Both the position numbers and the translations under genes were made by a program. Shown here piece by piece: positions 547 to 43,525 of a stretch of DNA of 64,000 nt. This stretch comes from Escherichia phage Ecwhy_1. The first letter of the stretch is position 1; every line of letters begins with the position of its first letter. The DNA lies in sequence record MH791411.1. One strand, 5' to 3'. The notes under the pieces are model-generated. The model made no database searches. It was not told where the DNA came from and was given only the letters and a program-made list of their open reading frames with translations.

Positions 547-3500
547 TTACCAGGTGAAGAATCCGTTATTAACGGCTGCTGTGCTTTTCTCATGAATACC
601 AATATCCATATCCAGAATACCAAAAATGTTTTCTAATTTTTTAGTTAGAACTATTTCTTCCATTTTCTCTGTATCAAATGGTAGTTCTAAGAACCATTCA
701 GGTAGATATTCCACACAGTCAATTGGGTAACCTACTGCTTTGATACCCATCGGGTTATCTTTTAAGTTACATACAATTACTTTTGTACCGTCAGTTACTT
801 CAGGTACAGTTTTGTCATCATATACTTCACGTAGACGGTTCCATTGAATACCTGCTAATACGTGACCAACTTTACATTTACCAGAAACTTCATATTCTGC
901 TTCTAAGTTGGTATAGTTCTTAACAGTTTTCGGTGAACCCTTTTCGTGTACAGGCATGTCTTTAAATACCTCTTTAAAGTCACGTACACGCTGTTTAAGT
1001 TGAGCTTCAGACTCACCCACCAGCAATGCAATTAGAGTCTCTTCTAGGAAGTTCTGGATGTATTTTGGCGTATCTGAACGTTTAATTTCAAGACCCATCG
1101 CTTTAATTTCACCAGGCTTTCCATCAACATCTTTACGGAAACCATCTTCCCAGTACTTGAGAATTGCATAACGCTTTTTCTTCAGGAATAGACCACGGGA
1201 ACCGACCATCTCTAGGTCTGCACCAACAATCTTACCTTTCTCAATACCAGTATTGAACATTTCGTTCATGAATGAAGGGAATGATTCACCAACTTCATCA
1301 CCGATTTTGATATACATGTCAACGATTTCTTCTTTCGAAAGATTATATGGAATACCTTGTTCTTTCAGATAATGAGTTACACTGAAGTAAACAGAGTCAG
1401 TATCACCGTAAATCACAGAGCCACCTTGGTGATTATAAACGCCAGTAGTGATTTCATTGATACGGCTTGCCATATGTTTAGTCATAGAACGACCAGTTAA
1501 GGTAACGGACTGACCTAAACGTTTATCAAAGAAACGTGAACCTTTGTTCAATAGTGCACCATATAGACTGTTTAGAAGAATCTTACGAATTTGCTGGTTC
1601 TGTTTCCAGAATGCACTTTGCTGTTTGAAGTAATTCTTATCTTCCGTTGCACAGAAAATACGACCATCTTTCAGTACTAAACCATTTTCCACAATGAGTT
1701 TTGCAACTTCTTCCCATTGACCTTTACCAATAGCAATACGTAATAGATAAACAGGATCATTGTCATGTAAGTTTGTACGGAACATTGTACCACTTGTGTA
1801 GTTAGATAGCAAAGGTTCAACCTTCTCAGAACCATTGAATTCCCACCCATCACTATACATGTGTTTGTAGTCGATTACCATTTTTTGTTGTGCTTTACGC
1901 TCAGAATACCATTGAGTAAGAATATCTGGAATTACACCATACTTAGACTTATCAAAAAGTGTTCCGTTAGCACTTAGTACAATAGTACTGTCTTCAGCAA
2001 AGATAATATCATACAATTCTTTACCAGTTGCATTGAACGAACTACCATCTTCTAAATCAACAATCAAAGTTTTGTCAGATTTTTCATGAACCATTGTAAA
2101 TTCTACAGCAGCAAATAAACCATGCCATGCAGCGGTCCAATCAGGTTCAAACGCTTTAGATTTGGATTTAGCTTTTTGCTCTTGTACTTTAGCAGCAAGA
2201 TATGCATCAGTGTAGTCTTGACGAAGTTGTCCAAGAATACATTCAGTACTCATGCCAAGTGTACGTAGTACAGTTGGATACAATGAGTTAAAGTCTGTAC
2301 ATCCCAAATCGCTAACAAGGCCAAGAACTGGATCTTGAACCCATGCACCAGCAGCTTTTGCACTGATTTTCTCATCTTCTTCATCACCTTCTTCACCATA
2401 GTACTCCATCTCTGGATCTAACTCAATATCATCTTTCGGTGCTTTGTTAAAAACAACTTCACCGCGACTGTGAGCAAGGTTGATGATAGCAGTGTCGATT
2501 AGTGCAACCGAACCCATTGTAGTACTAATTAGTACACATTCTTTATGAGCAAGACGGTTGTGCAGGTTGATAAAGTCACATTTAGCATCAATTTTCTTTA
2601 GAAGAATACTATCCTGCTTAGAATAACGCAAGAATGTAATGTAATCTTCACGGTATAGTTTATCCAATGAACCTTCATAGGATACTTTGTTTTCTTTAGT
2701 TACCTTTTCAGCAATATAATCTAGTTTGTACGACTGTTCAACTTGACCAGCATGTTTCTTATAAAGAGCAAGATAGTCTAAGTGTACGCGTCCAATAAGA
2801 TCATATGTTACTACAGTTTTACCAAAGTTATCAGCTTCACGAGCATTTGGTTTTTTATTCCACAAGCACCAACGAGCAGTAGTTGCTTCGTTGAAGATTT
2901 TCTTGGTACGGTTTACCATATATGGAATATCAAAGAATTCACTGTTCCAACCTGAAATTACATCAGAGTCATCGATTAGACTAAAGAACTCCATAAACAT
3001 TTCTTTCTCATCCGTATAAAGGATGACAGTACTGTTAGGGTCGTTAGTTTCTTCGTTTAACTGACGAACAATATCTTGTGCTTCGTACATTTCCATATCA
3101 GTTGGTGGCAAAGTCAGTACATAATCCTTACCAGTCCATGATTGATATAGAGAAATTGCAGTTACGCGGTTGAATGGATCTGATGGTGGAGCATAACCAA
3201 ACTTCTTATGGAAGTCGGTTTCGATATCGAAAAATGCTACGTTCAAATCCGGCGAACCTTTACCCATGTATTCTCTAGCCAACGTTTTGAAGGTAATGTT
3301 GCAATCACTTTCAAAAATACGTAGACCTTCATTTTTATGTTGCTCAACGCTTTTATTCATCTGTGATTGAGTTTCAAACTCCAAATGCTTTGCGTTGGTT
3401 CCATAAATTGTTTTGTGTTCACCAGTAGGAGATTCAACATAATATTCATATACTGGGTCCAACTGACGTAGAATACGTTTACCGTTTTTACGTTCTGCTA

Positions 3501-3552: not shown

Positions 3553-3579
3553 CGTTTGTATTCCTTTACGTTTATTAAG

Positions 3580-3610
3580 TTAAAAATAAAGCCCCCATTC
3601 ATTGGAGGCT
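3580..3610 (-). terminator. hairpin plus T-run immediately upstream of the polymerase SD (terminator and/or gp43-type translational operator)
   Basis: Minus-strand read AGCCTCC-aatgaat-GGGGGCT followed by TTTATTTTT, about 20 nt before the polymerase ribosome-binding site. Confidence 0.5.
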
Positions 3611-3634
3611 ATAAAGTTTAGTTTTTAGTACTTA

Positions 3635-3940
3635 TTAGTAATCGTCATCTGCTTGTGGCAAATTGTTAGTAACACTTAGGATAGTTTCGATATTATCGAG
3701 TTTGTTTTGTTTATCAAAGTAATCGCCTTTGTAGATACGTTGAGCGGCTTGTTTGATATCGGATGCATCAATACCTAGTTCATCAGAGATGGAACTAATG
3801 AAATCTGCATAGGATGCTTTGGTGTCGTCAATAAAAGTAAGTTGTACTACTGCGTTGTTTAGTGCATCACCTAGACGTTTACGTTGTTCATCATTTAGGT
3901 CACGAATTTCAACTTTAACTTCTTTTTTAGCTTTTGCCAT
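3635..3940 (-). CDS. hypothetical small acidic protein (101 aa)
   Basis: ATG with GGAGAAG SD; C-terminal acidic tail QADDDY. Function not recognisable from sequence. Confidence 0.5.
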   Translation of the reverse strand: MAKAKKEVKVEIRDLNDEQRKRLGDALNNAVVQLTFIDDTKASYADFISSISDELGIDASDIKQAAQRIYKGDYFDKQNKLDNIETILSVTNNLPQADDDY

Positions 3941-3961
3941 TTGTTTGCTTCTCCATGTGTT

Positions 3962-3999
3962 TTGAAAAAAATGTCATCTCACAACCTCTGTAAGATGAC
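3962..3999 (-). terminator. rho-independent terminator (minus strand)
   Basis: GTCATCT / AGATGAC stem with 13-nt loop followed on the minus strand by a T-run (A-run 3965-3970 on plus). Confidence 0.55.
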
Positions 4000-4040
4000 T
4001 ACATTGTATCACTACTTACGATTTTGTTCCAAAAAAACTT

Positions 4041-4559
4041 TTAAACAGGTTTAACAGGGAACGAAAACTTCTTCTTACTAAATTCAGATGTTGTTAGAGA
4101 TGATAGCTCAAGAACATATGCTTTCAACTTAGGAAACAGTTCTATTTCATAATCAGTTGCTACCTCAAGATCTATCGCCATCTTAATGTTATTCAACTCA
4201 TTAATTGCTACGGTTCTTAATTCTTGGTGCTCAGATGATAGACGTTTGATCTTTTCATCAGTAGATTCAACATAATCAGAAATTTTACTTCCATCATAGA
4301 TTTTACCAACTACTTCATCTTCATCACCATCATGCTCCAACTCAGAAACACTGTATCCATACGGTACTAACAATGTTACATCATATGATGCTTGTGCAAT
4401 ATAACCATCATCAGAGTACTGAACTTTCAAAGTATCTTGTCTGAATTCGTTTTGACAATCATACCAGTCAACACCCTCATCTGACAATAGATAAAGAACA
4501 TTATCTCCATGTTTCTTTTCTACTGGGATATATTTTTTGAAATGTGTATATGTTTTCAT
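4041..4559 (-). CDS. hypothetical protein (172 aa), possibly tail-fiber assembly chaperone
   Basis: ATG at 4559 is 1 nt from the stop of the upstream fiber-like gene; function is a positional guess only. Confidence 0.45.
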   Translation of the reverse strand: MKTYTHFKKYIPVEKKHGDNVLYLLSDEGVDWYDCQNEFRQDTLKVQYSDDGYIAQASYDVTLLVPYGYSVSELEHDGDEDEVVGKIYDGSKISDYVESTDEKIKRLSSEHQELRTVAINELNNIKMAIDLEVATDYEIELFPKLKAYVLELSSLTTSEFSKKKFSFPVKPV

Positions 4560-6230: not shown

Positions 6231-6539
6231 CTATAGCAAGTCGTTTTCCATATCGTCAAGAACAGAATCGACGATGTTCGCTGCTATCTTCTTAGGCATC
6301 TTGAACCACTCGGTGTTAGGTTGCCTTACTGCGTTCATTTGTTTTAGTCTTTTGTGAATTTCTTTCTCTGCTAAACGTGCATCTTCAAAGTGTACTTCAT
6401 GGTATACCACAAAATCTCTAAAAGGTGTAGCAGTTTGATATGTCCTTAAACGTTCTGTCATTTCAGATTTACTGGTAAATCCTATCTTAACATAATCAGG
6501 CCACGCATCATTTACTATAACATAACATATCTGTGACAT
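6231..6539 (-). CDS. T5orf172 / GIY-YIG-like domain protein (~102 aa)
   Basis: CYVIVND...YVKIGFTS...RLRTYQTATPF...EKEIHKRL...EWF matches the T5orf172 (MUG113) pattern as recalled; ATG at 6539 has a GGAGA SD (track ORF starts 15 nt earlier). Confidence 0.6.
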   Translation of the reverse strand: MSQICYVIVNDAWPDYVKIGFTSKSEMTERLRTYQTATPFRDFVVYHEVHFEDARLAEKEIHKRLKQMNAVRQPNTEWFKMPKKIAANIVDSVLDDMENDLL

Positions 6540-6952: not shown

Positions 6953-7876
6953 TTACTTAAAAGTATTTACGATTTCCAAAACACTTTCAAGATACTTAGC
7001 ATCAAAAGTTTCAGTAAATCCTGATGGTAACTCTTCAGTACTTACAACACCACTTTCAATGTATTGCTTGATGAACTTTTCCAATAATAATGGTTTGTTA
7101 CCATCCTCAAAGTAACGTTCTACCAGTACAGTGTGTTCAAAATCAGAATCACGGCTTTGTTCATGAATTCGCCTCTTCATGTCACCAGTAATTCCGTATT
7201 TGTAAACGACTTTTGAGTTATTAGATAGTTTTTGTACATAGAAATATCCAGGCTTTGATGGTTGATAACCATACTCACCACATGATGGACATCCTCTTCC
7301 TGCCATATGAGATTTGGGTATTTGTTTAAAGACACCATGTTCAGGACAAATAATATCCACATGTTCATCACTAGTCTTGTAATCCACCAAGCTATAATCA
7401 TACTTATGGTTATGGATAGGCGACACAAGTTCAATGAAACGTTCAGTACTTCTTCCACCTTTACCAGAACATATTCCACAACTAGTTTTTCCTTTTAATA
7501 ATGTTGCGGCTGATACTTCCCAATCATGAACATCATTTGGATCGTTGTGACATGTTACCGTCACTTTCCCATTACAATCACGTTGTCTTTTGTAGATAGT
7601 TTTTTCAAATGACAATGTTGGATGAATTGTTTTTACTTTCTCTATGAACGTTTCAGTTGTGTATGCTGTATTTTTTTGGCAAATATTACATCCCTTTGCA
7701 GTAGATCTTACAATTTGCATAGGAGTGATTTTGAAATAATGACCACCTTCCACACAATAAAGTTCAACCTGTTTATGTGCATTTATGTATACCATTTTAT
7801 CAAACAAATAAACCCCAGTGCCATATTTTTCATTCACCGTATTGATAAATTTTTCTTCATTTGGATTCATTGTCAT
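6953..7876 (-). CDS. zinc-ribbon repeat protein with C-terminal T5orf172/GIY-YIG-like domain (307 aa); putative homing-endonuclease-like nuclease
   Basis: Three tandem ~55-aa modules each ending in C-x2-C (GCNICQK, CGICSGKG, GCPSCGEYG) with conserved FIE...KYDYS...ICPEHG; C-terminal GYFYVQKLS...YKYGITGDMKRRIHE is GIY-YIG/T5orf172-like. Confidence 0.55.
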   Translation of the reverse strand: MTMNPNEEKFINTVNEKYGTGVYLFDKMVYINAHKQVELYCVEGGHYFKITPMQIVRSTAKGCNICQKNTAYTTETFIEKVKTIHPTLSFEKTIYKRQRDCNGKVTVTCHNDPNDVHDWEVSAATLLKGKTSCGICSGKGGRSTERFIELVSPIHNHKYDYSLVDYKTSDEHVDIICPEHGVFKQIPKSHMAGRGCPSCGEYGYQPSKPGYFYVQKLSNNSKVVYKYGITGDMKRRIHEQSRDSDFEHTVLVERYFEDGNKPLLLEKFIKQYIESGVVSTEELPSGFTETFDAKYLESVLEIVNTFK

Positions 7877-14093: not shown

Positions 14094-16292
14094 TTAACTG
14101 TTTCTCTCACCTTGGGTGTTTTCAGAGATAGTTCTTAGATAATTATTTGTCTGTTGTACAGCAGATAGTGATTGTTCATTAACATCGGCAAGCTTTTTGA
14201 GTATTTCTTTCATTTCATCAGAAATCGGTGCTGGTGGTCCAGTTCTCGATGTCACTGCACTACCATTATTTATCATCTTCTTAATTGCCTCTGTATCGTC
14301 AGGTTTTGGTGGAACTGGTGGTTCACCTGGTGCCCATGCAGTTTTATCAAAATCTTTACGAGATACAGTTATTTCTGGAGCAACGTTATTGGTTTTTTCA
14401 ATAACAGGACGAATACGTTCTACTCCTGGACGGTTGAATAAACTGTCAGCATAATCAGATGGTAGTGGTTTTGGTTCTTTGTAGTTACGTGAGGTGTTCC
14501 ATTTGTTGAACTTATCCCACATCCCTGCAAAATAATCACTAACACTATTTACACCGTTGTCAATGATGTTGTTTACGCTTTCTGCTGGGGTTTCAGTACT
14601 GTTATTGAGTTTTATATCATTATCAGAACCACCACCGAACCAACTTTTAACAGAATTCCATAGGTTACCTGGTAAATCCATTAAGTTATTCATAAAGGTA
14701 TCAAATGCTTCTGACACTTTAGAGTAACCTGAACCGAATATATCTGCACCCAATCCATCCAACCAAGCTGTAAATTCAGCACCAATACGATCAAGGTAAG
14801 CAATTGCATCTTTAGCAATAGGTACTAACCCAAATCCATCAAGAGCCAATTCCCCAATAAACTCCCATGCACCATCAGTTCTGTCTGCAATGTCAGAAAG
14901 ATAATCCACAATTGAATTTTGTGTATTAGCATACATTGTATTAAATGGTTCAGTGAATTCTTTACTAATCCACATATTGAAGCGGTTAGTAAATTGAGTT
15001 AATTTATCAGCGGGATTATTTTTAGGTTCATTTACGGTTGCTTCCATATCCAATAGTTGTTGGTAGAAGGTTGCAGCAGTTGTGTTTCCTAATTGAATCT
15101 GGTTAAGCAAATCTTGCTTAATTAATTCTTTATTCTTTTTAACGAATTCTAATTGTTGGCGACGAATTTCTTGTGAATCAGTTACACCACTACGTACAAG
15201 ATTTTCACCTAAATCAGCGAACTGGTTCAGTACTGGAGTGAGTAGGTCATCCGGTACGCCACCAATAGACAATCTGTGTGATATCAAACGGAGGAAATCT
15301 GCACCTGCATCACCCATTGCACCCGCAGCTTCGTTGAACGCCTTAGATGTTGCTACAGCAGCTTTACTGGATAGTCCAGAGTAGTTCTGCAATGCAATTT
15401 GCATAGAACGAGTATCGAGTGATTTATCTAGGTTTTGCGTTTTGTTTAGTAATGCATCAACGGATTCACCCATACTTTTACTGAATTTAGTCATGCTCAT
15501 GATAAATTGTTCAGTACTTTTAGCTTGGTCCATACTACGAAGAGCTTCACGACCACCATATTGTTTTTGGAACTTAATGTTTCTTGCAGTTAAATCAGTT
15601 AATGTTTTTTGAGAAATACCATAAAGGCCAAGTTCATTTTGAGCTTGTTGAACAGTTCCTAATAATTTACCAAAGGTAGCAACACCATCACCATATGCCC
15701 CATCCAATTGAGCTACTACAGAACTATGTGTTTGTAGAGCTTCACTGAATGCATCCATACTCAACATAGATGCACCTGCACCTTTCAGTACTGAACCATA
15801 ACCTTCAGCCAATGCAACACCAGCACTGTTAATTCTGGTATATACTTCCAATTGTGCATTAAGTGCGTTATATACAGCAAGACCAGCACCAGTAACGAGT
15901 TTAAATGCTGCTGCCGCTGCACCAATTGGACCTGGCATCATTGCTAATGAACCAGCAAATGATGATGCACTAACGCCTAATGAGTTTACTACAGTACTTA
16001 CGTTCGTACTGGAGTTCATCATTGTTTTGCTTACATTGGAAACTTCAGAAGATAGTGATTTGAACAATTTACCAAATGCTTTCCCATCATCGGCTTGTGC
16101 ACTTCCACGATTTCCACGATTACTGGAAGAACTGGAACTGGAACCATTCTTTTTACTATTTGAACCTGATTTTTTCTTATCATTCTTTATATTTTCAGCT
16201 AATAACTCACGGATAGCAGTCAAACTATCATTGTTATCTTTAGTTTGATTAACCAACTGCTGTAGTAGGTAATCACTTGTATTGACAGCCAT
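14094..16292 (-). CDS. Gly/Ala/Ser-rich virion protein, tape-measure-like or internal/ejection protein (~732 aa)
   Basis: Start taken at MAVNTSDYLLQQ (AAGGGA SD); poly-Ser tract, Ala/Gly-rich helical segments typical of tape-measure proteins; immediately upstream of portal in the same operon. Confidence 0.4.
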   Translation of the reverse strand: MAVNTSDYLLQQLVNQTKDNNDSLTAIRELLAENIKNDKKKSGSNSKKNGSSSSSSSNRGNRGSAQADDGKAFGKLFKSLSSEVSNVSKTMMNSSTNVSTVVNSLGVSASSFAGSLAMMPGPIGAAAAAFKLVTGAGLAVYNALNAQLEVYTRINSAGVALAEGYGSVLKGAGASMLSMDAFSEALQTHSSVVAQLDGAYGDGVATFGKLLGTVQQAQNELGLYGISQKTLTDLTARNIKFQKQYGGREALRSMDQAKSTEQFIMSMTKFSKSMGESVDALLNKTQNLDKSLDTRSMQIALQNYSGLSSKAAVATSKAFNEAAGAMGDAGADFLRLISHRLSIGGVPDDLLTPVLNQFADLGENLVRSGVTDSQEIRRQQLEFVKKNKELIKQDLLNQIQLGNTTAATFYQQLLDMEATVNEPKNNPADKLTQFTNRFNMWISKEFTEPFNTMYANTQNSIVDYLSDIADRTDGAWEFIGELALDGFGLVPIAKDAIAYLDRIGAEFTAWLDGLGADIFGSGYSKVSEAFDTFMNNLMDLPGNLWNSVKSWFGGGSDNDIKLNNSTETPAESVNNIIDNGVNSVSDYFAGMWDKFNKWNTSRNYKEPKPLPSDYADSLFNRPGVERIRPVIEKTNNVAPEITVSRKDFDKTAWAPGEPPVPPKPDDTEAIKKMINNGSAVTSRTGPPAPISDEMKEILKKLADVNEQSLSAVQQTNNYLRTISENTQGERNS

Positions 16293-17523: not shown

Positions 17524-18323
17524 GGTTTTAAACTACAGAATTGATTGAATTGAATTATGAAAGGAATTAATTATTTTATAGTGAACTCATCTAACTCATT
17601 TCATTCGTTAGCTGAAGAATATTCGTTACTACGTAACTCATATTCATTTCTTATAATTAATTATAAAGAACTTTAAAAGATTTAATACTTGACGGGATTT
17701 GTTGAAGACATTTTCATCCCCCCGCAGGGGAATGAAGACAATAAAAAAGAGACAATTAAGTCTCTTAATTCTTGACGCTGATGGTTTCAGCATTTATTGT
17801 ATTGCGAATTTCTTAAAATTCATTAAGAACGAAAGCGGGTTGCTCTGTTTCTCTCTATCGCAGTCATGTGCAACGGTCGTCAGTCTTAATCATCCTGACA
17901 CTCACCTGAAAGTCTATACAATCAAACTTCAGGCTGTTTATTAAATCACTTAATAAACTCCCTTAGCAAATCTGGTAAGGTGCGATCCTTATACATCTAT
18001 CGAGGAACTCTCTGTATGCTTATCGGAGTTCTTTATTGAGCCGTGTCGCCGTGAGGGGTTCAAACTATGCCCACATCTAACGGGTTTCTTCTGCTCATCG
18101 CACTGTTGAACTGCTCATCTGCCATCTACATTTTCGATAGGATCAGGTTCTAATTTATATGCATTTCTGCATTCAACAGGATTGTCATCACTACAATTAA
18201 CATTATAGCACCAAATTCAAAAGTGTCTCACTATTATGATAAAAAATTTATAAAAAGTACATAATTCTTGAACATTGAAGTAACGCATAAATATTTTGAT
18301 AAGAATTAGTTTAGTGGGGATTT

Positions 18324-18815
18324 ATGAAGAAAAGATTAAAAGATAGTAAAGAAGCTGCAAACTATCGAAATGAATTACTAAAGAAGCAAAAAGGAATTGA
18401 TCCTATAATTAAGGAACCAATCACTAAGCCAGTACTTGATCACTATCACTTCGAGAATCAACACTGTCGTGAAGTTCTCCAGAACGAAGTGAACGCATGG
18501 GAAGGTAAAGTACAGAACAGCTTTAATCGCTATATGAAGCACTTAACCGATAAACCCTTATACGAGGTACTACGAAATCTTGCGGATTATCTGGAGCGTA
18601 ATAACAGCATTCCTGAAGATGAGCAAGTTATACATCACACTGCACTAACAATCGATACGAATAAGTTTAAAAGGCTCCCAGCAGGACAACAGAATGCAAT
18701 ACTGGAAGAGTTAGGTGTTATCCCTGGTGCAAACAATGCTGCTCGTGTTAAGCAAGCCAGAAAGCTTATCAAGGAAGGCAAATTAAATATGGTAGATATA
18801 AAAAAAGGGAGCTAA
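18324..18815 (+). CDS. endonuclease VII-like (T4 gp49-like) HNH-type nuclease, 163 aa
   Basis: LDHYHFENQ...NEVNAWEGKVQNSFNR...DYLERN resembles T4 EndoVII HLDHDHELNG...NAAEGQMKHKFNR...DYLEWLEN as recalled; CATAAATA late-type motif about 30 nt upstream. Confidence 0.5.
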   Translation: MKKRLKDSKEAANYRNELLKKQKGIDPIIKEPITKPVLDHYHFENQHCREVLQNEVNAWEGKVQNSFNRYMKHLTDKPLYEVLRNLADYLERNNSIPEDEQVIHHTALTIDTNKFKRLPAGQQNAILEELGVIPGANNAARVKQARKLIKEGKLNMVDIKKGS

Positions 18816-18833
18816 GGCTCCCTTTCCTTTTAA
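18800..18833. terminator. bidirectional terminator between convergent genes
   Basis: GGGAGC-taag-GCTCCC hairpin flanked by an A-run upstream and T-run downstream; the plus-gene stop codon lies in the loop. Confidence 0.7.
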
Positions 18834-33553: not shown

Positions 33554-36500
33554 ATGACTAATAATTTTAAGTTTCAACCTACACAGATGGCTGAAGCAGT
33601 ACAGAAGAAGCTTTTCATAAAAAGATTGCCTGAGTGGATGCAAGGCTTAGAAGATATTCAGAAAGTCAGTGATGATGTTATCCAACAATGGTTTAATCCG
33701 GCTGAAAACGAATTAGTTGACGGCTACATTGGTGACATGGGTTCTCCGGCAGCAGCAGGGAACATCTTCTTACACGAGTCAACAGTCGCACGTCAACTAT
33801 ATCAGTTGTCCACTGCGTATGTCTCAAGAAATGATGACTCCAGCATTCGTTCAATTCAATTTTATGATGATCTAGTTGGCTATATGAATCATTACGGTGC
33901 ACTAACCGAAAATGAAAGCCGTTTGTTTAATGGTAAGTTCTATTCATGGACCCCACCAATTAACCCAAATAAAATGAACAACTACAGTTCATACCTATGG
34001 GATTCCAAGAATAGCTATAATATCACAACTCCAGATTATATTGTAATGGAACGTGGTGCAGAAAATGGTAACACTTGGTCACTACAAAACTTCTGGTACA
34101 CATTAGGTGAAACTTTAGAAGATGGTACTATCCTAACTGAAGAACTAATGCAAGATTCCCGTTTTGTTCGTGCTCGTGCACCAATTATCGAATACAATAA
34201 AAATATCGAACTAATGAACTACGGTACTAAATTCCGTGGGACAGTTGATTTGTTCTCTGATATTATTAAACCTGAAGATATCGTACAAAAAGATATTAAC
34301 AGCGGTATACGTATTGATGGTATTATTCCACAAGATGGTATGCGTATTCTTTTCACCAGTATTGGTAACAATGGTGAAAACAACCGAATTTATAAAGTAT
34401 ATGTTAAACGTATGCAAGATGGAACACGTGTGTATGGTCTAGCATTAGATCCAGACGAAGAATCTGAAAGCCGTCCGAGTGGTGAACCACAAGATGGTGA
34501 CGTAGTTCTTATTATCAAAGGTAATGAATTTGGTAACAGTTCCATGTATTGGGACGGTTCTCATTGGATTCAAGCACAGTCTAAAACTTCTGTGAACGTA
34601 TTTCCACAATTCCAATTGTATGACCGTAATGGTGTTAAACTAAACAACACTACTACCTATCCATCAAGTACTTTTACTGGTTCTTCACTATTTGGTTTTA
34701 AAATTAACTATAATTATGCAACTGATAGCGTTTATGGTTATAATATTGAACTAGGTGATTACAATTATTACACATATGAGAATTTCCTACAATCAACTCG
34801 TTATACTTACGAGCATTTGGGTGTGGAAGTTGAAATTGATGGACTATATTACTATAACGTAATTGGTGAAGGTAATACAATGAACCTAGAAACTGATTGG
34901 GTTCGTAGTACTGAATACTCCAAACAATATGTTAAACAAACTCCACAGGTTGAACGTACAGTAATGTTCCGCGTGTTCAGTACTGTTTATGACATGGAAA
35001 GTTTCAAAGACCCAGTTGAAGGAATGTATGCTTATGTAATTGAAGTTGACAGAACTTATCAATATTACAAAGCAGAACGTGAAACATATCTTGATTGGCA
35101 TGTTATCGTTGGTGATGGGGTACAAAGCGTTAAGTACAATCATACATTTGAATTGGCACAAAAAGTACTAGATAATTCTGATGATATTATCGAACTAGTT
35201 GTTGATGGTGTGGAAATAAAAGAATACACCAAAACTGTAGTTAATAATCAAGTACAAAGTATTACAATTGATAGCTCTGTTGATTTGGATGAAGATTCTG
35301 TTGTACAAATCAGAACTTATAGTAGCACTATCACTCCTAATAAAGAGTTGGGTGCATATGAAGTTCCAATTAACCTACAAAATAACCCATATAATTCAAA
35401 CATTGAATACATCAACCAAGGTGATTACACCCTGCACTTCCAAGATATTATTCAAAAGAATATTACATCTGGTTCTGCTGATGACTTTAACAATTACGAA
35501 GAACGTTTGGCTGCTGGTTTGGTTAATAATGGTGTAGGCACTAAAATTATTCAAAACGAAGCGTCCATGTTACCACTAATGGCACATACCGCTAATGAAG
35601 ATATTGATTTGTTTGAATCAATCATGTTTATGCAAGCAGAATACTTCCGCTTCATTAACAAGTTCAACACTCAAATGCTTCGTTTGTATGAAGAAGACCC
35701 AAGTGCTTTTCTTGGTAATAGTGCATCAAACATCGTAGATGCGATTCTAACAGCTATTAATATGGGACGTGATAGTACATTCCCATTCTACTATGACAAC
35801 GTTGCAAGCACTGCTGGGTTTATTCGTGCATTTGTCCCACCAACTCCACAGTTCTTGGGTATTTTGCAAGCTTATACACCACAAAAAGCAACATTCTTAA
35901 CTGCTGGTAGTAAATCTAGCTGTTATAATATCAGTCATACTGGTATTATTTCAAAAGCATACCGTGTTATCAATGGTGTTGATAAAATGGATGACGTAGT
36001 TTTTGAATTGGAAAATCGTATCTTTAATAGTATTGATCTTACTTTCAAGGATATTGATTATAAACCAGTACTAAACAGTGAAGACCTATTCCCAACTCCA
36101 TATTTCACTGGTACTGATTATAGTGCAGAAGAAAAGAAAACTCTATTACTACGTGGTTACATTAACTTCACAGCAACCAATGGCATTAGTAACAGTACTC
36201 ATGATTATGATGCAAATAACTGGAGAACTTGGAACTATACTGGTAGTTATTATGTTGTTGATGGTCAACGTACTGAAATTCCTGCTCGTGGTTCATGGCG
36301 TGCAATCTATACTGACCAATATGGCACATATCGTCCAGCAACCCATCCGTGGGAAATGATGGGCTTCTCTCAACGTCCTACTTGGTGGAACCAAGAATAC
36401 GAACCAACCGCAGTTCAAGTTGGTGAACGTGAGGGTGATGTTGTTTATGTGTATGAAGCACTAGTAATGAATGAAAATGGTGATTTGGTCCCAAGTGGAT

Positions 36501-39500
36501 TGTGGGATATTGATGGTACTATCGGTGATAGCAGTACTGGTACTATTTTGTCAGGTGAACGCCGTGGTCAATATGACAAATACAAGCGTTTCGGTGTACA
36601 GCCATTTAAAATCACTAAGACTGGCGAGAAAACCAGTACTGGTATTGATATTTGTGAAGTTGAGTATATTGCACCTGAAGTTTTAGGTCTTGTTAGTGGT
36701 AATTTAGATCATCGTGCAGAACCGTGGTCTTATGGTGACATGGGTGACATGGAATTCACTTACATGAACACTGCGATGTTTGCTTATGACCAAATGCTTC
36801 TTCTATACAAAGCAAAACCAGCACAGTTTGCAAACTATTACTGGGATACCCGTAATGATAACCTTAAACCAGTTTATACTGATGGTTCACAGTTCCTTTA
36901 TGGTGAAACTCGTAAGCGTCTAAACTTTGACAGTACTACATTAGTACATGGTGAGAAAAACACCCGTACTATCGGTTATCAAATGTTTGTTAGTGACTAT
37001 TTGATGTATCAGAATAAGAACATTACCACCAAATACGGTGACGTTGTTCGTTCTTCTTATGTCAATGTCGCTCACAAAATTGGTGGCTTTACTAAAGCAG
37101 ACCAATTGACATTCACTGCTAAATCTTTCGGTTTGATTTCACAAGAAAACCAAACTATCGGTCTAGTTCGTTCCAATAACATTCGCGATGAGCAAATGAG
37201 TGCAGTAAAAATTACTTGGAATGGTAGTGCATATCAAATTGATGGTTATGATTTAGTTGGTGCTAAATTTAAATATAAAATTCCAGTTAAAAATGGAAGA
37301 AAAGTAACTCTTAAATTGGAAGACAGAACTGTTGTTCATTACAATGAATGGAAATCTGAAGGTACATTAGAATATGGTAAAATATTCAATACATACCAAG
37401 AAGTTTATACTTTCATTTGTGGATATGGTGAATATCTAAAAGAACATGGCTGGATTTTTGAAGATGTAAATGATAGTGGTACTCAACAAGACTGGACAAC
37501 TATTGCTAAAGACTTTGTTATTTGGAGTCAGAATAATTTAAGTACTGGTGAGTTCATCTCCTGCACTCCAAGTGCAGCTAATGCTAAATTTGGTGCGGAT
37601 TTTGGTTCAGTTCAATCTGTTACACAGAATAGTGGTGGTGTTTGGTCACTACTCGATGATGAAAACCAAGGTATCCGTCAATATGAAATCGAAACTTCGC
37701 GTATCGGTAACGTATTCACAGTGAGAACTACATCTGAATCACAAAAACGTATGGCGTTGATTCGTTTGAGCCTAAGTTCATATGAACACGCAGTTGTTTT
37801 TGATGATAAAACTATCTTTGGTGATTACATTTACCAACCAACTTATGGTGCTATTCAAGAATTGATTAAAATGTATGGTTACATTACTGGGTCATGGACT
37901 GGTCGCCTACAAGCACCTGGTTTCATTATCCTAGAAGCAGGAACTTTACCATCATTTGAAAAATTAGTAACTGATTTTGAATTATATTATAATAGTGAAA
38001 CTCCTGTGAGTGATGTTCAGCTTCAAGAGTTATCAAATCACTTGATTGGCTATCAAACTCGTGATTATCTACAACGTATGATTAGTAGTGATGTTAGTCG
38101 TGTTGATTTCTATAAAGGATTCATTCATGACAAAGGTACTAACCAAGTAATGGAAAAAGTACTACGCGTTTCTAAATCTTACGACACTGATGAATATAAA
38201 GCACTTCAGGAATGGGCATTTAAGATTGGTACTTATGGTAATATCAATGGTAAGAAAAATCTACAATTTAAACTAATCAATGACCAATTTAAACAACAAC
38301 CACAGATGGTTTCGTTTGATGTTAATGCTACATCAAATGGTACTGGTAATGGTATTGTTTATTACGGTGAACAAGGGGTTGACTCACGCTGGATTACTCG
38401 TCCAAATGGTAAGTTTTCATTCCCAATGCGTAGTGGAAGAAGTGAGAATATCCAACTTCCAGACATTGGTCCTGTAACACTAGATGAAATTTCATACGTT
38501 ACTAAAGATTTCAGTACTGCATATAATGATCGTATCAATTATATGAATAACAGTGGTGAAATCCCAGATTCTGTATGGATGTTTAAAGATGGTAATGATT
38601 TGTGGAATATTTTCGAACTAGTAGACACTGAAGTTGAGATGCTCTCTATCGTTCCAATTGAAAATACCGATGTATATGCAGAACAATTCTGTAAAGTAAC
38701 TCTAAGTGATGATATCCCACTAAATGATGGTGATTATTATTACTTTGTTGATGAAACTAACTTTATGCCAGATACATTGACTATAGAAAGTCAATATTAT
38801 ACTGCGGGTAATGACCCTAGAGTTATGGTAGTTCCGTTTGACACTTCAATCACTATTGACTTCACTGATCCTGATACTCGCCCACGCTTGTATCGTTATG
38901 TTTCACGATTCAGTACTGAAGAGATGCGTCAGGAATACATTGACAGAAAATATAGTTTTAAAGCTCCACAAAGTACTTTGTTTGACCGCCCAACCACATA
39001 TGATGAGCGTACTAACATTACTGCGTTGTACCTAAACGTGTTTGACCCAATCAACGGTGTTATTCCTGGTGCAGCGATGCAGAACGTTACCTACACATCT
39101 CCAGTTGACCCAGCACAATACAACAGCAATGGTGAATTGATTCAAGCATGGGGTGCTGATAAAGTTGGTCAGGTTTGGTGGAACACCAGCACTGCTTTCT
39201 ACTTAGATTACACTCGTGCAATCTATGATGCTGATGGTAATGTGGATGTTGATGCAACAAATGAATATAAACGTTATAACTGGGGCAGATTGCTACCGCA
39301 CAGTACTGTTGATGTTCTTGAATGGGTATGTTCACCAGTTGAACCATATAACTGGGACAAATACTGCAAAGACGTTGCTAACAAAAATAAAAACAACACT
39401 ATGTACCTACCAAGCGGAACCGCATTGGAAGATAATTATAGTACGTTCTTAGAATATGATAGCACAACTGATACTTATGTTACAAAATACTATTTCTGGG

Positions 39501-42500
39501 TTCGTGATACAATCTATGTACCACCATTGCATTCCAGAACTAAATCTTGTACTGATATTGCTCGTATTATTAAAGAACCAGCACAGCTTAACATTCCTTG
39601 GTTTGCACCAATCAATGAAAGCTCGTTCATTCTAAGTAATATGCAATTTGAAGTCAACGATGACACAAGTATTTTAACTGTTTCTTATTACATGGATAAT
39701 ACTGAAGTTATTAAACATGACCAGTATCAATTATGTAAAGAAGGTGATAGCTATAACTTCAATCCATCAATCTGGACTTCTATGTGGAATTCTATGATTG
39801 GTCAAGAAACTACTGAATCAGGAACTGTTATTGATTTACTATATCCTTTAGTACCAAACGGTTTAGGTTCTAATAAGACTTGGTTCCAAGATGTAATTGA
39901 AGCTCGTAGAAACTTTGTAGAAAGTGCAAATAACTATTATCGCTCACAGAATATAACAACTAACACTGTTCTAATGGACGAAGTGTTTAATGTTAAAACT
40001 ACTGAAGTTAACCCGAATGAAGTATCATATCGTGTACTAACTTACAATAGTGAATTAGTCATTGCACCTGAAAGTGACAAGTTCAAAGAAAACGACGCAG
40101 TACTAGTAAGTACTAGTGGTGTATTACCTAACCCACTATCAACTAGCTCTGTATATTTTGTGCATATTGATGCTAATGGTTATATTCATCTAATGAATAG
40201 TCCATCAAGTGCTGGTAGTGTGGTTACCATTACATTGGAAAACCGTGGTGAAGGTCAACAGAAAATGATTAAACAATCAGACTATGTTGAAGCACTAGGA
40301 ACTTCATTGGACATGACCCAGTACTGGTCACTAGCAGATTGGTATGATATTGGCTACGATAAAAATACTGCATATACACAAGAATCCAGCCTAGAAGATG
40401 CAAACACTAAGAACTATCAAGTTGGTGACATTATCAGAATTACAGATGTTGATGGCATCTGGACATTGTACATTAAAGCACAATCACGTGATTCAGTTTA
40501 CTGGAAAGCAATTGGTCGTGAAAATAGTACAGTTGAATTGAATGATATGTTATACGCTGACTATACAGTTCGTGATGCTAATGGTTCGTTGAGTAATCGT
40601 GAGATTAACGTTCGTAAAGCACTAGCTTTATTGAAGAACTCATTCGACTTACATCAGAGTGAAATTGTGTTTGATATGGTTAAGTATGTTCACGTAGAAC
40701 AAAGCGTTGTTGATTGGGTATTCAAAACATCTTACATTTATATTGTAGGTTTAGAACAATCATTAGTACAGAACTATTCCAACGACAACTTGATTAATCA
40801 AATCGTTGAGTACTTTGAAGAAGTTAAACCATATAGAACTAAGATTCGTTCCCAGATTGAACAGAAAACTTCAGATGATGATTTAATTAAAGGTTTGTGT
40901 AATGATTTAGATCCTAATGGCTATATATTTGCAGATGGGACTTGGGTTAAAACGGAAAAAGACATTTGGGATTATGAATATGCTCAATTCAATGAGGTAA
41001 CTCAACGTTGGGAGCAAGTTGGTGAATTGCCAAGTGATTTCGTAACACCTAATCGCCGTTTCCAAGAAATTGATGTTATCATGCACTACGACAACACTCA
41101 ATGTAAACCAAATGATAATTTGGCAAGTGTTGATGTATTGGAAGAAGTGAATAAGAAATATCAATCTAATGCACAAGATGTTGTTAGTAATTTTGAATTA
41201 CAACGTTACAAATATACATTCCCAGAATACAGTGATGAAGATTTCGACCTATTGGTTGCTTATCAGATGCAATTGTATTACCCAGAATTGAACGTAACTC
41301 TAGGGATTGCTTACGGTGTTAACCAATGGTATGCAGACCATGCAGATGATTTGGTAGCAACCGCAGAATTCACAGAAACGTTGAATCGTGTATATAAAGA
41401 ATCAACACAAAATGAAATGTTTAATGACGTAAATCATTATGTTCAGTATAACACACTCTCTAACCGTTTGAAATTGTACACAGGTGCAGATGATGAAGTA
41501 ATTCATGATGAGGTTGGATGTGGATTTAGTGGGTTAACCTATGATGATAATCCAAGCACCAGACTACCGTTTGGTTATGCATCCAGTACTGATTATAACT
41601 TTGGTTACTTTGAAGTTAGTAGTGAGTTGTATAAAAAGTATGTTTCTTTAATTAAAGAAAACAATACTACTGCAACTGATGATGAAGTTAGAATTATACT
41701 TGAAGTTGAATATGGTGTTTATTCATATCGCCATGTAGATGAAGATGGAAATCAACGATTCTACAATGACGCAATTCATGTATTGTCTGGTATGCGTGGT
41801 TTGTATGACAAAGATGCTACCGACCATTATGAAAAGGCTGAAGAAATACTAAGTAGAATGCCTATTGATATTCATGCATTTACTATGATGCCACGAAAAT
41901 ATGTTTATGTTAATGTTAATGGTGTATACGAGAGTATCCCAGATGACCAAAGCATTGATGATTTCATGGAAGACAAATTCATAACTGACGGTCAACTAGT
42001 TCAATTGGCAGAAATAAATCTTGATGACTTACCTCTTGATAGAAATAACCCAATGTACAGTGATTATCAGCACATCCTAGATAGCATCACCGATGCTAAG
42101 TACTACGATGATATGAATGCATTTGATAACCTAGCACTTGAATCACAAACTTCCGAGTTAAAATGGGAAGTTGAAGGTGACGAAGTAGATCCGTACATAA
42201 TCGACATTTCTGATATTAACCCATCAGGAAGAAAGATTGGTCAGATTCGCTTCACAGTTGATGGTTATGGATTCAATAGTGTTTCACTAGTTCAATTGAG
42301 AGACAATAGTAGATATAAAACTGAAGGTATGGTTATCATCAACCCTTATAAAACAACAGAAGCAATTGTTAGTATTCCTTCTTACGCTAAGATTGAAAAT
42401 GATATTAGTAAATCATACAGTAAGTATGATGAAAAATACTTCTATAAAATTAAATCAATTGTTAGTGATACAGAAGCTGAAGTAATTGACAATACCCTAT

Positions 42501-43525
42501 CTGATGGTGATAAGGTTATGATATTCACAACTGATGGTGAAGATTATGTGAGATACCAAAACAATGCATGGGAAACCATCTTGAGTGTATCAAAAATCAA
42601 AACTGACACCACACCAACCTTGTACACAGTAAGAAACACTGCGAACGGAACTGTAGAACTACTAGATAGTACTGGAGTTGTACTTCGTTATGATAACATC
42701 ACTAAACAACAACAGAATGAACCAGCAATACCTCTAGCATTGAACATCGTTCGTATTAGAACCTTTGCTGATCCAGAATTCTTGGTTGATGGTGTTAAGT
42801 TGTATGAAACAAATAGAAACTATGCTATCGACGCAATGAACTATGAAGTATTCTACGACACAACACTATACGGTGGTTCTTATAATGATGGAATTACACC
42901 AGATGACGTTGATGTTTGGGTAGTGTCTAACGAGATATTTGAAGTTGATGGTGTTACCATTGATAACGGATATAACTTACCAATTACTGGTGCAGGTGTT
43001 CTTAGTGAGTTAGTGAGAACCAAAATGACTGATAGTGTGGAAATTAACGTGTTCGAGTATGATGTTGGTATTATTCAACCAGTACTGAATACTGAAGGGG
43101 TATGGGAATATGCATATCCACTAGTTAGTGATACATATATTGGTGTAGTTGGTGGAACCGTAACTAACATTACTGCTATCAGTGAAGAAAATACTACTTA
43201 TGTTTCACAACCAGATTCAGTTAGTCCATATAGTGTTACTAATAATGTTCTATCTGGTGCTGGTGCAAGTATGAATGATATTATTTCTCTTGGTTTTGAA
43301 AAAGTTGAAGTACGTTTTGCAAATAACTTACTCCGTGGGGTAATGTATAGTGCAGAACACGACTTTAAAGAGAATGTGACATATTCATTTAATGGCTTGA
43401 ACTTAGGTAAAGTTAATTTACTAAAACGTTATAGTGTTAACAGTTATCCAATCGAACTATCTGTTTACTCCGATAGTTTGCAAATAAGTGGTACTGACAT
43501 TAAAAATCTATTAGAAGTTAAATAA
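33554..43525 (+). CDS. giant virion protein (~3323 aa), probable baseplate wedge (gp7/gpI-position) or fiber-network protein
   Basis: Uninterrupted 10-kb ORF; start taken at the second ATG with GGAG SD; CATAAATA late-type motif upstream; non-repetitive composition; position after gp6-like. Confidence 0.55.
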   Translation: MTNNFKFQPTQMAEAVQKKLFIKRLPEWMQGLEDIQKVSDDVIQQWFNPAENELVDGYIGDMGSPAAAGNIFLHESTVARQLYQLSTAYVSRNDDSSIRSIQFYDDLVGYMNHYGALTENESRLFNGKFYSWTPPINPNKMNNYSSYLWDSKNSYNITTPDYIVMERGAENGNTWSLQNFWYTLGETLEDGTILTEELMQDSRFVRARAPIIEYNKNIELMNYGTKFRGTVDLFSDIIKPEDIVQKDINSGIRIDGIIPQDGMRILFTSIGNNGENNRIYKVYVKRMQDGTRVYGLALDPDEESESRPSGEPQDGDVVLIIKGNEFGNSSMYWDGSHWIQAQSKTSVNVFPQFQLYDRNGVKLNNTTTYPSSTFTGSSLFGFKINYNYATDSVYGYNIELGDYNYYTYENFLQSTRYTYEHLGVEVEIDGLYYYNVIGEGNTMNLETDWVRSTEYSKQYVKQTPQVERTVMFRVFSTVYDMESFKDPVEGMYAYVIEVDRTYQYYKAERETYLDWHVIVGDGVQSVKYNHTFELAQKVLDNSDDIIELVVDGVEIKEYTKTVVNNQVQSITIDSSVDLDEDSVVQIRTYSSTITPNKELGAYEVPINLQNNPYNSNIEYINQGDYTLHFQDIIQKNITSGSADDFNNYEERLAAGLVNNGVGTKIIQNEASMLPLMAHTANEDIDLFESIMFMQAEYFRFINKFNTQMLRLYEEDPSAFLGNSASNIVDAILTAINMGRDSTFPFYYDNVASTAGFIRAFVPPTPQFLGILQAYTPQKATFLTAGSKSSCYNISHTGIISKAYRVINGVDKMDDVVFELENRIFNSIDLTFKDIDYKPVLNSEDLFPTPYFTGTDYSAEEKKTLLLRGYINFTATNGISNSTHDYDANNWRTWNYTGSYYVVDGQRTEIPARGSWRAIYTDQYGTYRPATHPWEMMGFSQRPTWWNQEYEPTAVQVGEREGDVVYVYEALVMNENGDLVPSGLWDIDGTIGDSSTGTILSGERRGQYDKYKRFGVQPFKITKTGEKTSTGIDICEVEYIAPEVLGLVSGNLDHRAEPWSYGDMGDMEFTYMNTAMFAYDQMLLLYKAKPAQFANYYWDTRNDNLKPVYTDGSQFLYGETRKRLNFDSTTLVHGEKNTRTIGYQMFVSDYLMYQNKNITTKYGDVVRSSYVNVAHKIGGFTKADQLTFTAKSFGLISQENQTIGLVRSNNIRDEQMSAVKITWNGSAYQIDGYDLVGAKFKYKIPVKNGRKVTLKLEDRTVVHYNEWKSEGTLEYGKIFNTYQEVYTFICGYGEYLKEHGWIFEDVNDSGTQQDWTTIAKDFVIWSQNNLSTGEFISCTPSAANAKFGADFGSVQSVTQNSGGVWSLLDDENQGIRQYEIETSRIGNVFTVRTTSESQKRMALIRLSLSSYEHAVVFDDKTIFGDYIYQPTYGAIQELIKMYGYITGSWTGRLQAPGFIILEAGTLPSFEKLVTDFELYYNSETPVSDVQLQELSNHLIGYQTRDYLQRMISSDVSRVDFYKGFIHDKGTNQVMEKVLRVSKSYDTDEYKALQEWAFKIGTYGNINGKKNLQFKLINDQFKQQPQMVSFDVNATSNGTGNGIVYYGEQGVDSRWITRPNGKFSFPMRSGRSENIQLPDIGPVTLDEISYVTKDFSTAYNDRINYMNNSGEIPDSVWMFKDGNDLWNIFELVDTEVEMLSIVPIENTDVYAEQFCKVTLSDDIPLNDGDYYYFVDETNFMPDTLTIESQYYTAGNDPRVMVVPFDTSITIDFTDPDTRPRLYRYVSRFSTEEMRQEYIDRKYSFKAPQSTLFDRPTTYDERTNITALYLNVFDPINGVIPGAAMQNVTYTSPVDPAQYNSNGELIQAWGADKVGQVWWNTSTAFYLDYTRAIYDADGNVDVDATNEYKRYNWGRLLPHSTVDVLEWVCSPVEPYNWDKYCKDVANKNKNNTMYLPSGTALEDNYSTFLEYDSTTDTYVTKYYFWVRDTIYVPPLHSRTKSCTDIARIIKEPAQLNIPWFAPINESSFILSNMQFEVNDDTSILTVSYYMDNTEVIKHDQYQLCKEGDSYNFNPSIWTSMWNSMIGQETTESGTVIDLLYPLVPNGLGSNKTWFQDVIEARRNFVESANNYYRSQNITTNTVLMDEVFNVKTTEVNPNEVSYRVLTYNSELVIAPESDKFKENDAVLVSTSGVLPNPLSTSSVYFVHIDANGYIHLMNSPSSAGSVVTITLENRGEGQQKMIKQSDYVEALGTSLDMTQYWSLADWYDIGYDKNTAYTQESSLEDANTKNYQVGDIIRITDVDGIWTLYIKAQSRDSVYWKAIGRENSTVELNDMLYADYTVRDANGSLSNREINVRKALALLKNSFDLHQSEIVFDMVKYVHVEQSVVDWVFKTSYIYIVGLEQSLVQNYSNDNLINQIVEYFEEVKPYRTKIRSQIEQKTSDDDLIKGLCNDLDPNGYIFADGTWVKTEKDIWDYEYAQFNEVTQRWEQVGELPSDFVTPNRRFQEIDVIMHYDNTQCKPNDNLASVDVLEEVNKKYQSNAQDVVSNFELQRYKYTFPEYSDEDFDLLVAYQMQLYYPELNVTLGIAYGVNQWYADHADDLVATAEFTETLNRVYKESTQNEMFNDVNHYVQYNTLSNRLKLYTGADDEVIHDEVGCGFSGLTYDDNPSTRLPFGYASSTDYNFGYFEVSSELYKKYVSLIKENNTTATDDEVRIILEVEYGVYSYRHVDEDGNQRFYNDAIHVLSGMRGLYDKDATDHYEKAEEILSRMPIDIHAFTMMPRKYVYVNVNGVYESIPDDQSIDDFMEDKFITDGQLVQLAEINLDDLPLDRNNPMYSDYQHILDSITDAKYYDDMNAFDNLALESQTSELKWEVEGDEVDPYIIDISDINPSGRKIGQIRFTVDGYGFNSVSLVQLRDNSRYKTEGMVIINPYKTTEAIVSIPSYAKIENDISKSYSKYDEKYFYKIKSIVSDTEAEVIDNTLSDGDKVMIFTTDGEDYVRYQNNAWETILSVSKIKTDTTPTLYTVRNTANGTVELLDSTGVVLRYDNITKQQQNEPAIPLALNIVRIRTFADPEFLVDGVKLYETNRNYAIDAMNYEVFYDTTLYGGSYNDGITPDDVDVWVVSNEIFEVDGVTIDNGYNLPITGAGVLSELVRTKMTDSVEINVFEYDVGIIQPVLNTEGVWEYAYPLVSDTYIGVVGGTVTNITAISEENTTYVSQPDSVSPYSVTNNVLSGAGASMNDIISLGFEKVEVRFANNLLRGVMYSAEHDFKENVTYSFNGLNLGKVNLLKRYSVNSYPIELSVYSDSLQISGTDIKNLLEVK

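Follow-up and report, generated by a model that had tools for sequence, protein, structure and literature searches.

The EndoVII-like gene analysed here raises the question of whether a phage protein that carries the catalytic motif of endonuclease VII and lacks its paired cysteines still belongs to that family, and how such a protein would fold. T4 endonuclease VII (EndoVII, gp49) is the textbook phage junction resolvase, and its zinc site is regarded as belonging to the signature of the family. Structural zinc differs among the His-Me-finger families generally. The gene lies in a 64,000-nucleotide stretch of DNA (the window) and encodes a protein that is very likely an EndoVII of the T4 gp49 type which has kept its active site, has lost its zinc knuckle and is transcribed late. 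The positions of the gene, its sites and the neighbouring features are given in Table 1.

Table 1. Positions of the features described in the text, numbered within the window unless another sequence is named
Feature	Position	Strand	Remarks
EndoVII-homologue CDS	18324-18815	+	ATG-started ORF of 163 aa, stop included; g339 of fEgEco12
Shine-Dalgarno-like GTGGGGA	18314-18320	+	3 nt before the ATG; read from the sequence
ATAAATA, putative late-promoter core	18287-18293	+	31-37 nt upstream of the EndoVII ATG; octamer CATAAATA at 18286-18293
D26-P27-I28-I29 codons	18399-18410	+	replace the first T4 knuckle, C23-L-I-C26 (hhalign, MAFFT)
D39-H40-Y41-H42 codons, catalytic Asp/His cluster	18438-18449	+	correspond to T4 D40, H41, H43
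R49 to E60 codons	18468-18503	+	REVLQNEVNAWE; include Q53 and V56 in place of ligands C58 and C61
Intrinsic-terminator hairpin	18804-18825	+	9-bp stem, then T-rich tail; overlaps the EndoVII stop codon
ATAAATA candidates	6222, 6569, 9230, 10439, 12336, 16325, 51564	-	upstream of gene starts
ATAAATA candidates	16396, 18287, 22941, 28969, 28986, 29947, 33511, 51599	+	upstream of gene starts
Lone ATAAATA off gene starts	14267-14273	-	inside pb2-like gene, about 190 nt before the portal gene
Structured RNA gene, unannotated	17699-18195	-	about 450-500 nt; just upstream of the EndoVII gene, opposite strand
RNA, conserved core	18150 to 17699	-	
RNA, -10 TATAAT	18207-18202	-	
RNA, terminator stem	17766-17747	-	
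RNA, highly conserved hairpin (G/C)	about 17735-17708	-	
Full-length RNA, Citrobacter amalonaticus P55 prophage	3557-4101 of locus L033		contig NZ_JBALIF010000001.1
Full-length RNA, related metagenomic contig	2545-3088 of locus L048		
307-aa ORF	6953-7876	-	between the major capsid gene (ends 8010) and g351
g352, small GIY-YIG nuclease gene	6231-6539	-	among tail-fibre genes; own ATAAATA at -36
g328, 'hypothetical protein'	33554-43525	+	single 9,972-nt gene, about 3,320 aa; ATAAATA at -43

Relationship to T4 gp49 and the catalytic centre

The window is part of a Rak2-like (Asteriusvirus-type) Escherichia coli jumbo phage. Between bases 17000 and 21000 it shares 99.9% of its sequence with Escherichia phage fEgEco12 and about 88% with phages 121Q and PBECO4. 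The fEgEco12 gene is annotated as 'endonuclease VII', an annotation that recurs in Rak2-like/Asteriusvirus jumbo phages, and EndoVII-like resolvases have been listed for a subgroup of the jumbo phages (PMC7824862).

The window protein matches phrog_423 ('endonuclease VII'), to which T4 gp49 itself belongs, over its whole length (E 2.8e-34). A single-sequence phmmer search of the PDB with the window protein gave no match, and a clade profile was therefore needed. Such a profile (A1, built from 30 homologues) matched T4 EndoVII chains and no others in the PDB (E 1.2e-6, T4 residues 33-140). For the profile-profile comparison the partner (A2) consisted of T4 gp49 and 12 zinc-bearing relatives; the gp49 sequence used was 100% identical over all 157 aa to sequences of T4-type phages. 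The hhalign alignment of A1 with A2 (probability 100%, E 3.2e-40) covers 143 columns and runs from the N-terminal helix to the C-terminus (T4 residue 157). An AlphaFold2 monomer model of the window protein (mean pLDDT 88) was compared with the PDB by Foldseek, and T4 EndoVII was the sole match (1e7l_A, E 6.9e-8, 161 columns, TM 0.65), the best unrelated entry having an E value of 0.83. The fold comparison and the hhalign alignment both take in the full T4 fold, including the C-terminal helical (dimerisation) domain.

Pfam gives a different picture. Family PF02945 (Endonuclease_7) scores 16.4 bits against the window protein (E 0.0085), under the gathering threshold of 23.6 bits, and the T4 dimerisation domain PF09124 was not detected in it by sequence search. 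For comparison, PF02945 scores 77.9 bits against T4, 48.8 against the EndoVII of Escherichia phage Mt1B1_P10, and 31.8 and 34.6 against the zinc-less proteins of phages FV3 and DC31. Pfam alone would leave an unassigned protein, an outcome overturned by the PHROG, profile and fold matches. From the PHROG, profile, profile-profile and fold comparisons it therefore follows that the window protein is a full-length homologue of gp49 by descent and forms part of a distinct zinc-less subfamily, and is not a mere carrier of an HNH-like motif. The likeness to T4 EndoVII that the first-pass annotation had seen in the HNH-like core is borne out by the profile alignment and the structure prediction it had proposed as checks. 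The unrelated HNH protein it had named as one refuting outcome is argued against by homology spanning the whole protein.

The window protein and T4 EndoVII (PDB 1EN7, 1E7D, 1E7L, 2QNC and 2QNF) are of one length class (163 and 157 aa, respectively) and are alike in fold over about 161 positions, in catalytic residues, in PHROG membership and in the T4-type late promoter motif that precedes the gene. They differ in that identity is only 20-24% and in that all four zinc-ligand cysteines are replaced in the window protein. The neighbourhoods also differ, the T4-type gene lying next to nrdD and the window gene next to sbcCD-like genes.

The window protein contains LDHYH...CREVLQNEVNAWEG, which carries the D-H-x-H...R...N motif of the EndoVII family on the beta-beta-alpha-metal core. 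R49, N57 and E60 correspond to T4 R54, N62 and E65 in the MAFFT, HMMER and hhalign alignments. In 30 aligned close homologues the catalytic D, H, H, R and N do not vary; among the 148 distant representatives the Asp/His cluster is kept in 147-148, and all five residues are essentially invariant. As read from these alignments, the catalytic centre is complete and comprises D39, H40, H42, R49, N57 and E60.

The same motif (DHHRN) and beta-beta-alpha-metal core are found in F-CphI, a homing endonuclease of cyanophage S-PM2, and in the restriction enzyme Hpy99I (PMC6083498), and probable mobile nuclease genes are present in the window itself. Both observations would suit a free-standing homing or other endonuclease of HNH type that shares the EndoVII motif only and is not a resolvase. 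F-CphI and Hpy99I, however, have the catalytic domain alone in common with the window protein, retain the CxxC pairs on either side of the motif and are specific for sequence, not for DNA branches. The window protein resembles gp49 along its whole length, C-terminal helical domain included, and its gene, unlike a mobile gene, occupies a fixed place by the sbcCD-like genes in six genera. Neither a sporadic, mobile distribution nor motif-only homology was found. Given full-length homology and a position shared by several genera, a homing endonuclease is rejected, and we regard it as highly improbable.

From homology to the T4 enzyme, we infer resolvase activity, dimer formation and a role in packaging for this gp49 homologue. 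It would be a His-Me-finger (beta-beta-alpha-metal) nuclease that acts as a Mg2+-dependent dimer and cuts Holliday junctions and other branch points of the concatemers formed by replication. Debranching before or during packaging would then allow the concatemeric DNA to be packaged.

Genomic setting, late transcription and neighbouring features

The EndoVII gene is flanked on one side by a baseplate-hub gene and on the other by convergent sbcC/sbcD-like (gp46/gp47-like) recombination nuclease genes, beyond which, 3 kb from the EndoVII gene, lies the late sigma factor gene g336. The place beside the sbcCD-like genes is conserved in jumbo phages of Escherichia, Klebsiella, Salmonella, Erwinia, Cronobacter and Vibrio. 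The Shine-Dalgarno-like site of the gene is weaker than the AAGGAG-type sites of its neighbours. The terminator hairpin at its end also serves the convergent sbcC-like gene, which ends at 18834, and phages Munch and UE-S1 have an annotated terminator at the equivalent place. Because this hairpin overlaps the stop codon, the EndoVII gene looks like a monocistronic late unit.

The heptamer ATAAATA occurs 16 times in the window, against 25.4 expected, and is thus depleted overall; the octamer CATAAATA is not enriched there either (4 found, 5.5 expected). Fifteen of the 16 heptamers are correctly oriented and precede an annotated start by 24-71 nt (binomial P ~1e-25 for the range of 20-75 nt), and they include two divergent back-to-back pairs (16325/16396 and 51564/51599). 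The genes behind them are nearly all virion genes (major capsid, tail fibre, baseplate, hub, pb2-like, gp48 and others), together with EndoVII (-37). The polymerase, sbcCD, sigma-factor, Clp and Nudix genes of the window are without the heptamer. The heptamer is also found upstream of the EndoVII orthologue in phages Sharanji (-37), Vibrio phage 2.275.O (-35) and Munch (-58), and an exact copy is absent upstream of the orthologue in K64-1 and pEa_SNUABM_50. All four bases occur directly before it. The late-type motif that the first-pass annotation had placed in front of the gene is therefore real in this phage group, but its functional core is the heptamer ATAAATA, and conservation does not extend to the base before it.

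The product of g336 matches phrog_12791 and phrog_234 (late sigma factors) and is of the gp55 family. The two elements of a T4-type late unit, an A/T-rich element of the -10 type and a gp55-family sigma factor, are both present by sequence, which supports a late promoter for the EndoVII gene that would be read with the gp55-like factor. The ATAAATA motif, a gp55-like factor and an EndoVII homologue have been reported for the Rak2-like phages CBB and GAP32 (PMC5259590). The T4 late promoter TATAAATA and the ATAAATA of CBB and GAP32 are alike in having an AT-rich -10-type element and no -35 element, in standing before virion genes and in the use of a gp55-like sigma factor. They differ in that the first T of the T4 promoter is not conserved at the window sites and in that no gp33 homologue has been reported for CBB (PMC5259590). 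The identity of the EndoVII gene and its late expression are ordinary, both having already been published for this group of phages.

Other genes of the window were noted in passing. The ORF of 307 aa is read as an insertion of about 1 kb because it is absent from the otherwise 99.9%-identical fEgEco12. In Pfam its product matches the DUF4379 treble-clef zinc finger just above threshold and T5orf172/MUG113 (GIY-YIG-like) below threshold, which suggests a free-standing mobile nuclease gene. The gene g352 is a probable mobile nuclease gene as well and, with an ATAAATA motif of its own, seems to have been brought under late transcription. The large gene g328 presumably encodes a giant virion protein.

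Within the gap of about 800 nt that precedes the EndoVII gene lies a structured RNA gene, on the opposite strand. The gap is 92-94% identical in nucleotide sequence to those of Sharanji and 121Q, versus 85.5% for the CDS, and can be aligned at 68-76% in Rak2-like phages of nine host genera. In all 19 copies of the RNA an extended -10 promoter (TGnTATAAT) lies 45-70 nt upstream of the core, and each copy has an intrinsic terminator whose stem covaries, with the highly conserved G/C hairpin after it. The consensus structure of 103 pairs is 95.5% paired in the 19-sequence alignment, compared with 40-44% when the partners are slid. Changes on both sides were seen at 43 pairs, compared with 4-12 in the slid controls, and none of 500 shuffles reached the observed values on four of five measures. 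A coding explanation was rejected, as no ORF is conserved in the region, and the annotated small ORFs g340 and g341, which overlap or abut the RNA, are probably spurious. A tRNA search of the region upstream of EndoVII was negative. Rfam 15 yielded no family for the window copy at E<=1 or for five other copies at E<=10, and a literature search found no earlier description of the RNA, which may be more novel than the zinc loss of EndoVII.

Yersinia phage fHe-Yen9-04, Serratia phage BF and one uncultivated genome (locus pairs L021/L029, L024/L032 and L026/L030) have a second copy of the RNA, about 85 kb away from the one linked to EndoVII. Full-length RNA is also found in a prophage of Citrobacter amalonaticus P55 and in a related metagenomic contig, and the exact core occurs in nineteen further metagenomic loci. 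The prophage copy is situated between a gene for a large serine recombinase (integrase) and one for a CI-like (HTH and S24 peptidase) repressor, next to host pilus genes.

Loss of the zinc knuckle across a phage clade

The published description of the family has a central DHDH flanked by CX2-4C and CX2C, and the zinc-motif cysteines of T4 EndoVII are C23, C26, C58 and C61 (PMC6083498). The verified gp49 sequence has cysteines at these same four positions; the two CxxC pairs that the first-pass annotation had given as the T4 zinc ligands are therefore correct. In alignments by MAFFT (152 sequences) and hhalign, the four cysteines fall opposite D26, I29, Q53 and V56 of the window protein, and HMMER independently agrees on the second pair (C58/C61 opposite Q53/V56). 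C48 is the only cysteine of the window protein. The protein has no CxxC motif, and a search for a cryptic, shifted one was also negative. Neither the N-terminal CX2-4C nor the C-terminal CX2C that together hold one structural zinc is present, and the earlier statement that the CxxC pairs have no counterpart proved accurate. C48 is a core residue and not a ligand, because V, C and I interchange at its column among relatives. These alignments show that the zinc knuckle has been lost, CxxC...CxxC having given way to D-P-I-I...Q-x-x-V.

Zinc-bearing enzymes closer to the clade than T4 are represented by the EndoVII of Mt1B1_P10 (Vectrevirus) and by representatives P0145 and P0156. Enzymes of this type share with the window protein the N-terminal helix motif Y-x-x-E-L-L-x-x-Q-G and the catalytic core. 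They keep CCCC or CCHC ligand sets, and many are shorter at the C-terminus. The knuckle region reads YKKELLEKQGWKCPICGAPL in Mt1B1_P10 and YRNELLKKQKGIDPIIKEPI in the window protein, so that K-C-P-I-C-G stands against I-D-P-I-I-K; the Pro and Ile of the knuckle are retained and both cysteines are gone.

The zinc-less state is typical of a large phage clade; it is neither peculiar to the window gene nor a case of one gene decaying. Each of the 120 nearest cluster representatives, which are 56-99% identical and derive largely from contigs no longer than about 350 kb, has 1-5 cysteines, and 119 of them are without a CX2-4C motif. Positions 53 and 56 are mostly QV, QC, DV or EV in this set, with the Q-V pair in 73 of the 120 and a pair of cysteines in none. 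Against phage Sharanji the gene has a dN/dS of 0.064 (dS 0.85), which indicates strong purifying selection.

When 1.84 billion representatives were searched exhaustively with a profile, 603 matched at E<=1e-3. Ligands were counted in the best 148 of the 603, which have residues at all four ligand columns. Eight of these 148 carry CCCC, 4 carry CCHC, 2 have two cysteines, 58 have one and 76 have none. A complete zinc site is thus missing from 136 of the best 148, with the catalytic motif kept, and in 126 of these 136 no CX2-4C occurs anywhere in the protein. The all-or-none pattern of ligands is as expected of real gain or loss of a metal site. Because the seed of the search was a zinc-less profile, these proportions describe the neighbourhood of the clade and not the whole EndoVII family.

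A rough neighbour-joining tree, made with the ligand columns removed, rooted on T4 and without support values, places the zinc forms beside T4, then a group that keeps the first Cys only, and then an Asp group that holds the query. The first ligand position is D in all 80 members of the Asp group, followed by P in 52 of the 80, then by I or L, and then by T in 51 of the 80.

Isolated phages with a zinc-less EndoVII include the rV5-like FV3 and Hena1, Ralstonia phage BHDT8 (Okabevirinae) and Limnohabitans phage DC31. The rV5-like proteins (Vequintavirinae; FV3 ORF091, Hena1) bear the annotation 'EndoVII packaging and recombination endonuclease', and FV3 and similar phages are about 48% identical to the window protein in the N-terminal catalytic domain. 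They are alike in having G-L-D-P-I-L in place of the first CxxC and in having lost the second, but their C-terminal domain is different and is unmatched by tblastn. FV3 has two isolated cysteines, each one position off an old ligand site, and passes the Pfam threshold.

A fold without structural zinc

In T4 EndoVII the structural Zn(Cys)4 knuckle fastens the N-terminal hairpin to the beginning of the catalytic helix. A zinc knuckle that joins the hairpin before the His-Me finger to the N-terminal end of this helix is described as a general feature in PMC5714182. According to the account in PMC6083498, which cites Giraud-Panis 1995, the T4 mutants C23S and C61S lack activity and fail to bind DNA, and a zinc-free fold would for this reason need compensation. 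The substitute for the knuckle may be an Asp-Pro turn (D26-P27) together with hydrophobic packing of I29 against V56. The AlphaFold2 model has the hairpin, the strands and the helix from residue 54 all in place, with pLDDT 90-93 over residues 11-40, in a prediction that leaves metals unmodelled and can copy a fold from homologues. On this model the protein most likely has a zinc-free fold held by the Asp-Pro turn and the I29/V56 packing.

A vestigial site could instead still bind a structural metal through ligands other than cysteine, such as D26, a Q, D, E or H at position 53, and water or residues of the partner subunit. D26 is invariant in 30 aligned close homologues, and the wider Asp group often has T, D/H and S/T at the other three positions, where O or N ligands are possible. 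Two of the four positions (I29 and V56) are aliphatic here and in most Rak2-like homologues, however, so that a residual site has at most two ligands, and position 53 varies among the close homologues (Q, D, E, N, A, V, I). Retention of a metal in this way is unlikely.

The inactivity of the T4 ligand mutants, as well as the low Pfam score, might also suggest that the EndoVII homologue is catalytically silent or has been repurposed, and that it binds branched DNA but leaves it uncut. Such a protein is at odds with the invariance of the catalytic residues and with the strong purifying selection. There is, moreover, no second EndoVII-like gene in the 64-kb window that could stand in for it, tblastn with the 163-aa protein finds a single place per Rak2-like genome among the records listed, and comparative work treats the gene as the junction resolvase of the group (PMC7824862). 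We consider a silent homologue very unlikely.

A further-reaching interpretation is that a large natural clade of EndoVII resolvases probably folds and works without structural zinc, the knuckle having been replaced stepwise by a metal-free turn. The replacement would have led from Cys4 or Cys3His to a single Cys and then to Asp-Pro. A literature search for a zinc-less EndoVII found no earlier description of the loss, which, in contrast to the gene identity and the late motif of the Rak2-like phages, appears not to have been published.

A conserved and strongly selected clade without the ligands amounts to a natural experiment in the replacement of a zinc knuckle. It explains why Pfam under-detects these proteins and warns against the use of CxxC pairs as a criterion for the family. 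Given the T4 mutant data, a naturally zinc-free EndoVII clade deserves biochemical testing, and a zinc-independent enzyme that cleaves junctions and mismatches could differ in its tolerance to redox conditions and chelators. If the proposed replacement is correct, most of the EndoVII homologues that can be reached with the clade profile, those of large myoviruses, would be zinc-free, and the zinc that has been called essential in T4 EndoVII would be evolutionarily dispensable.
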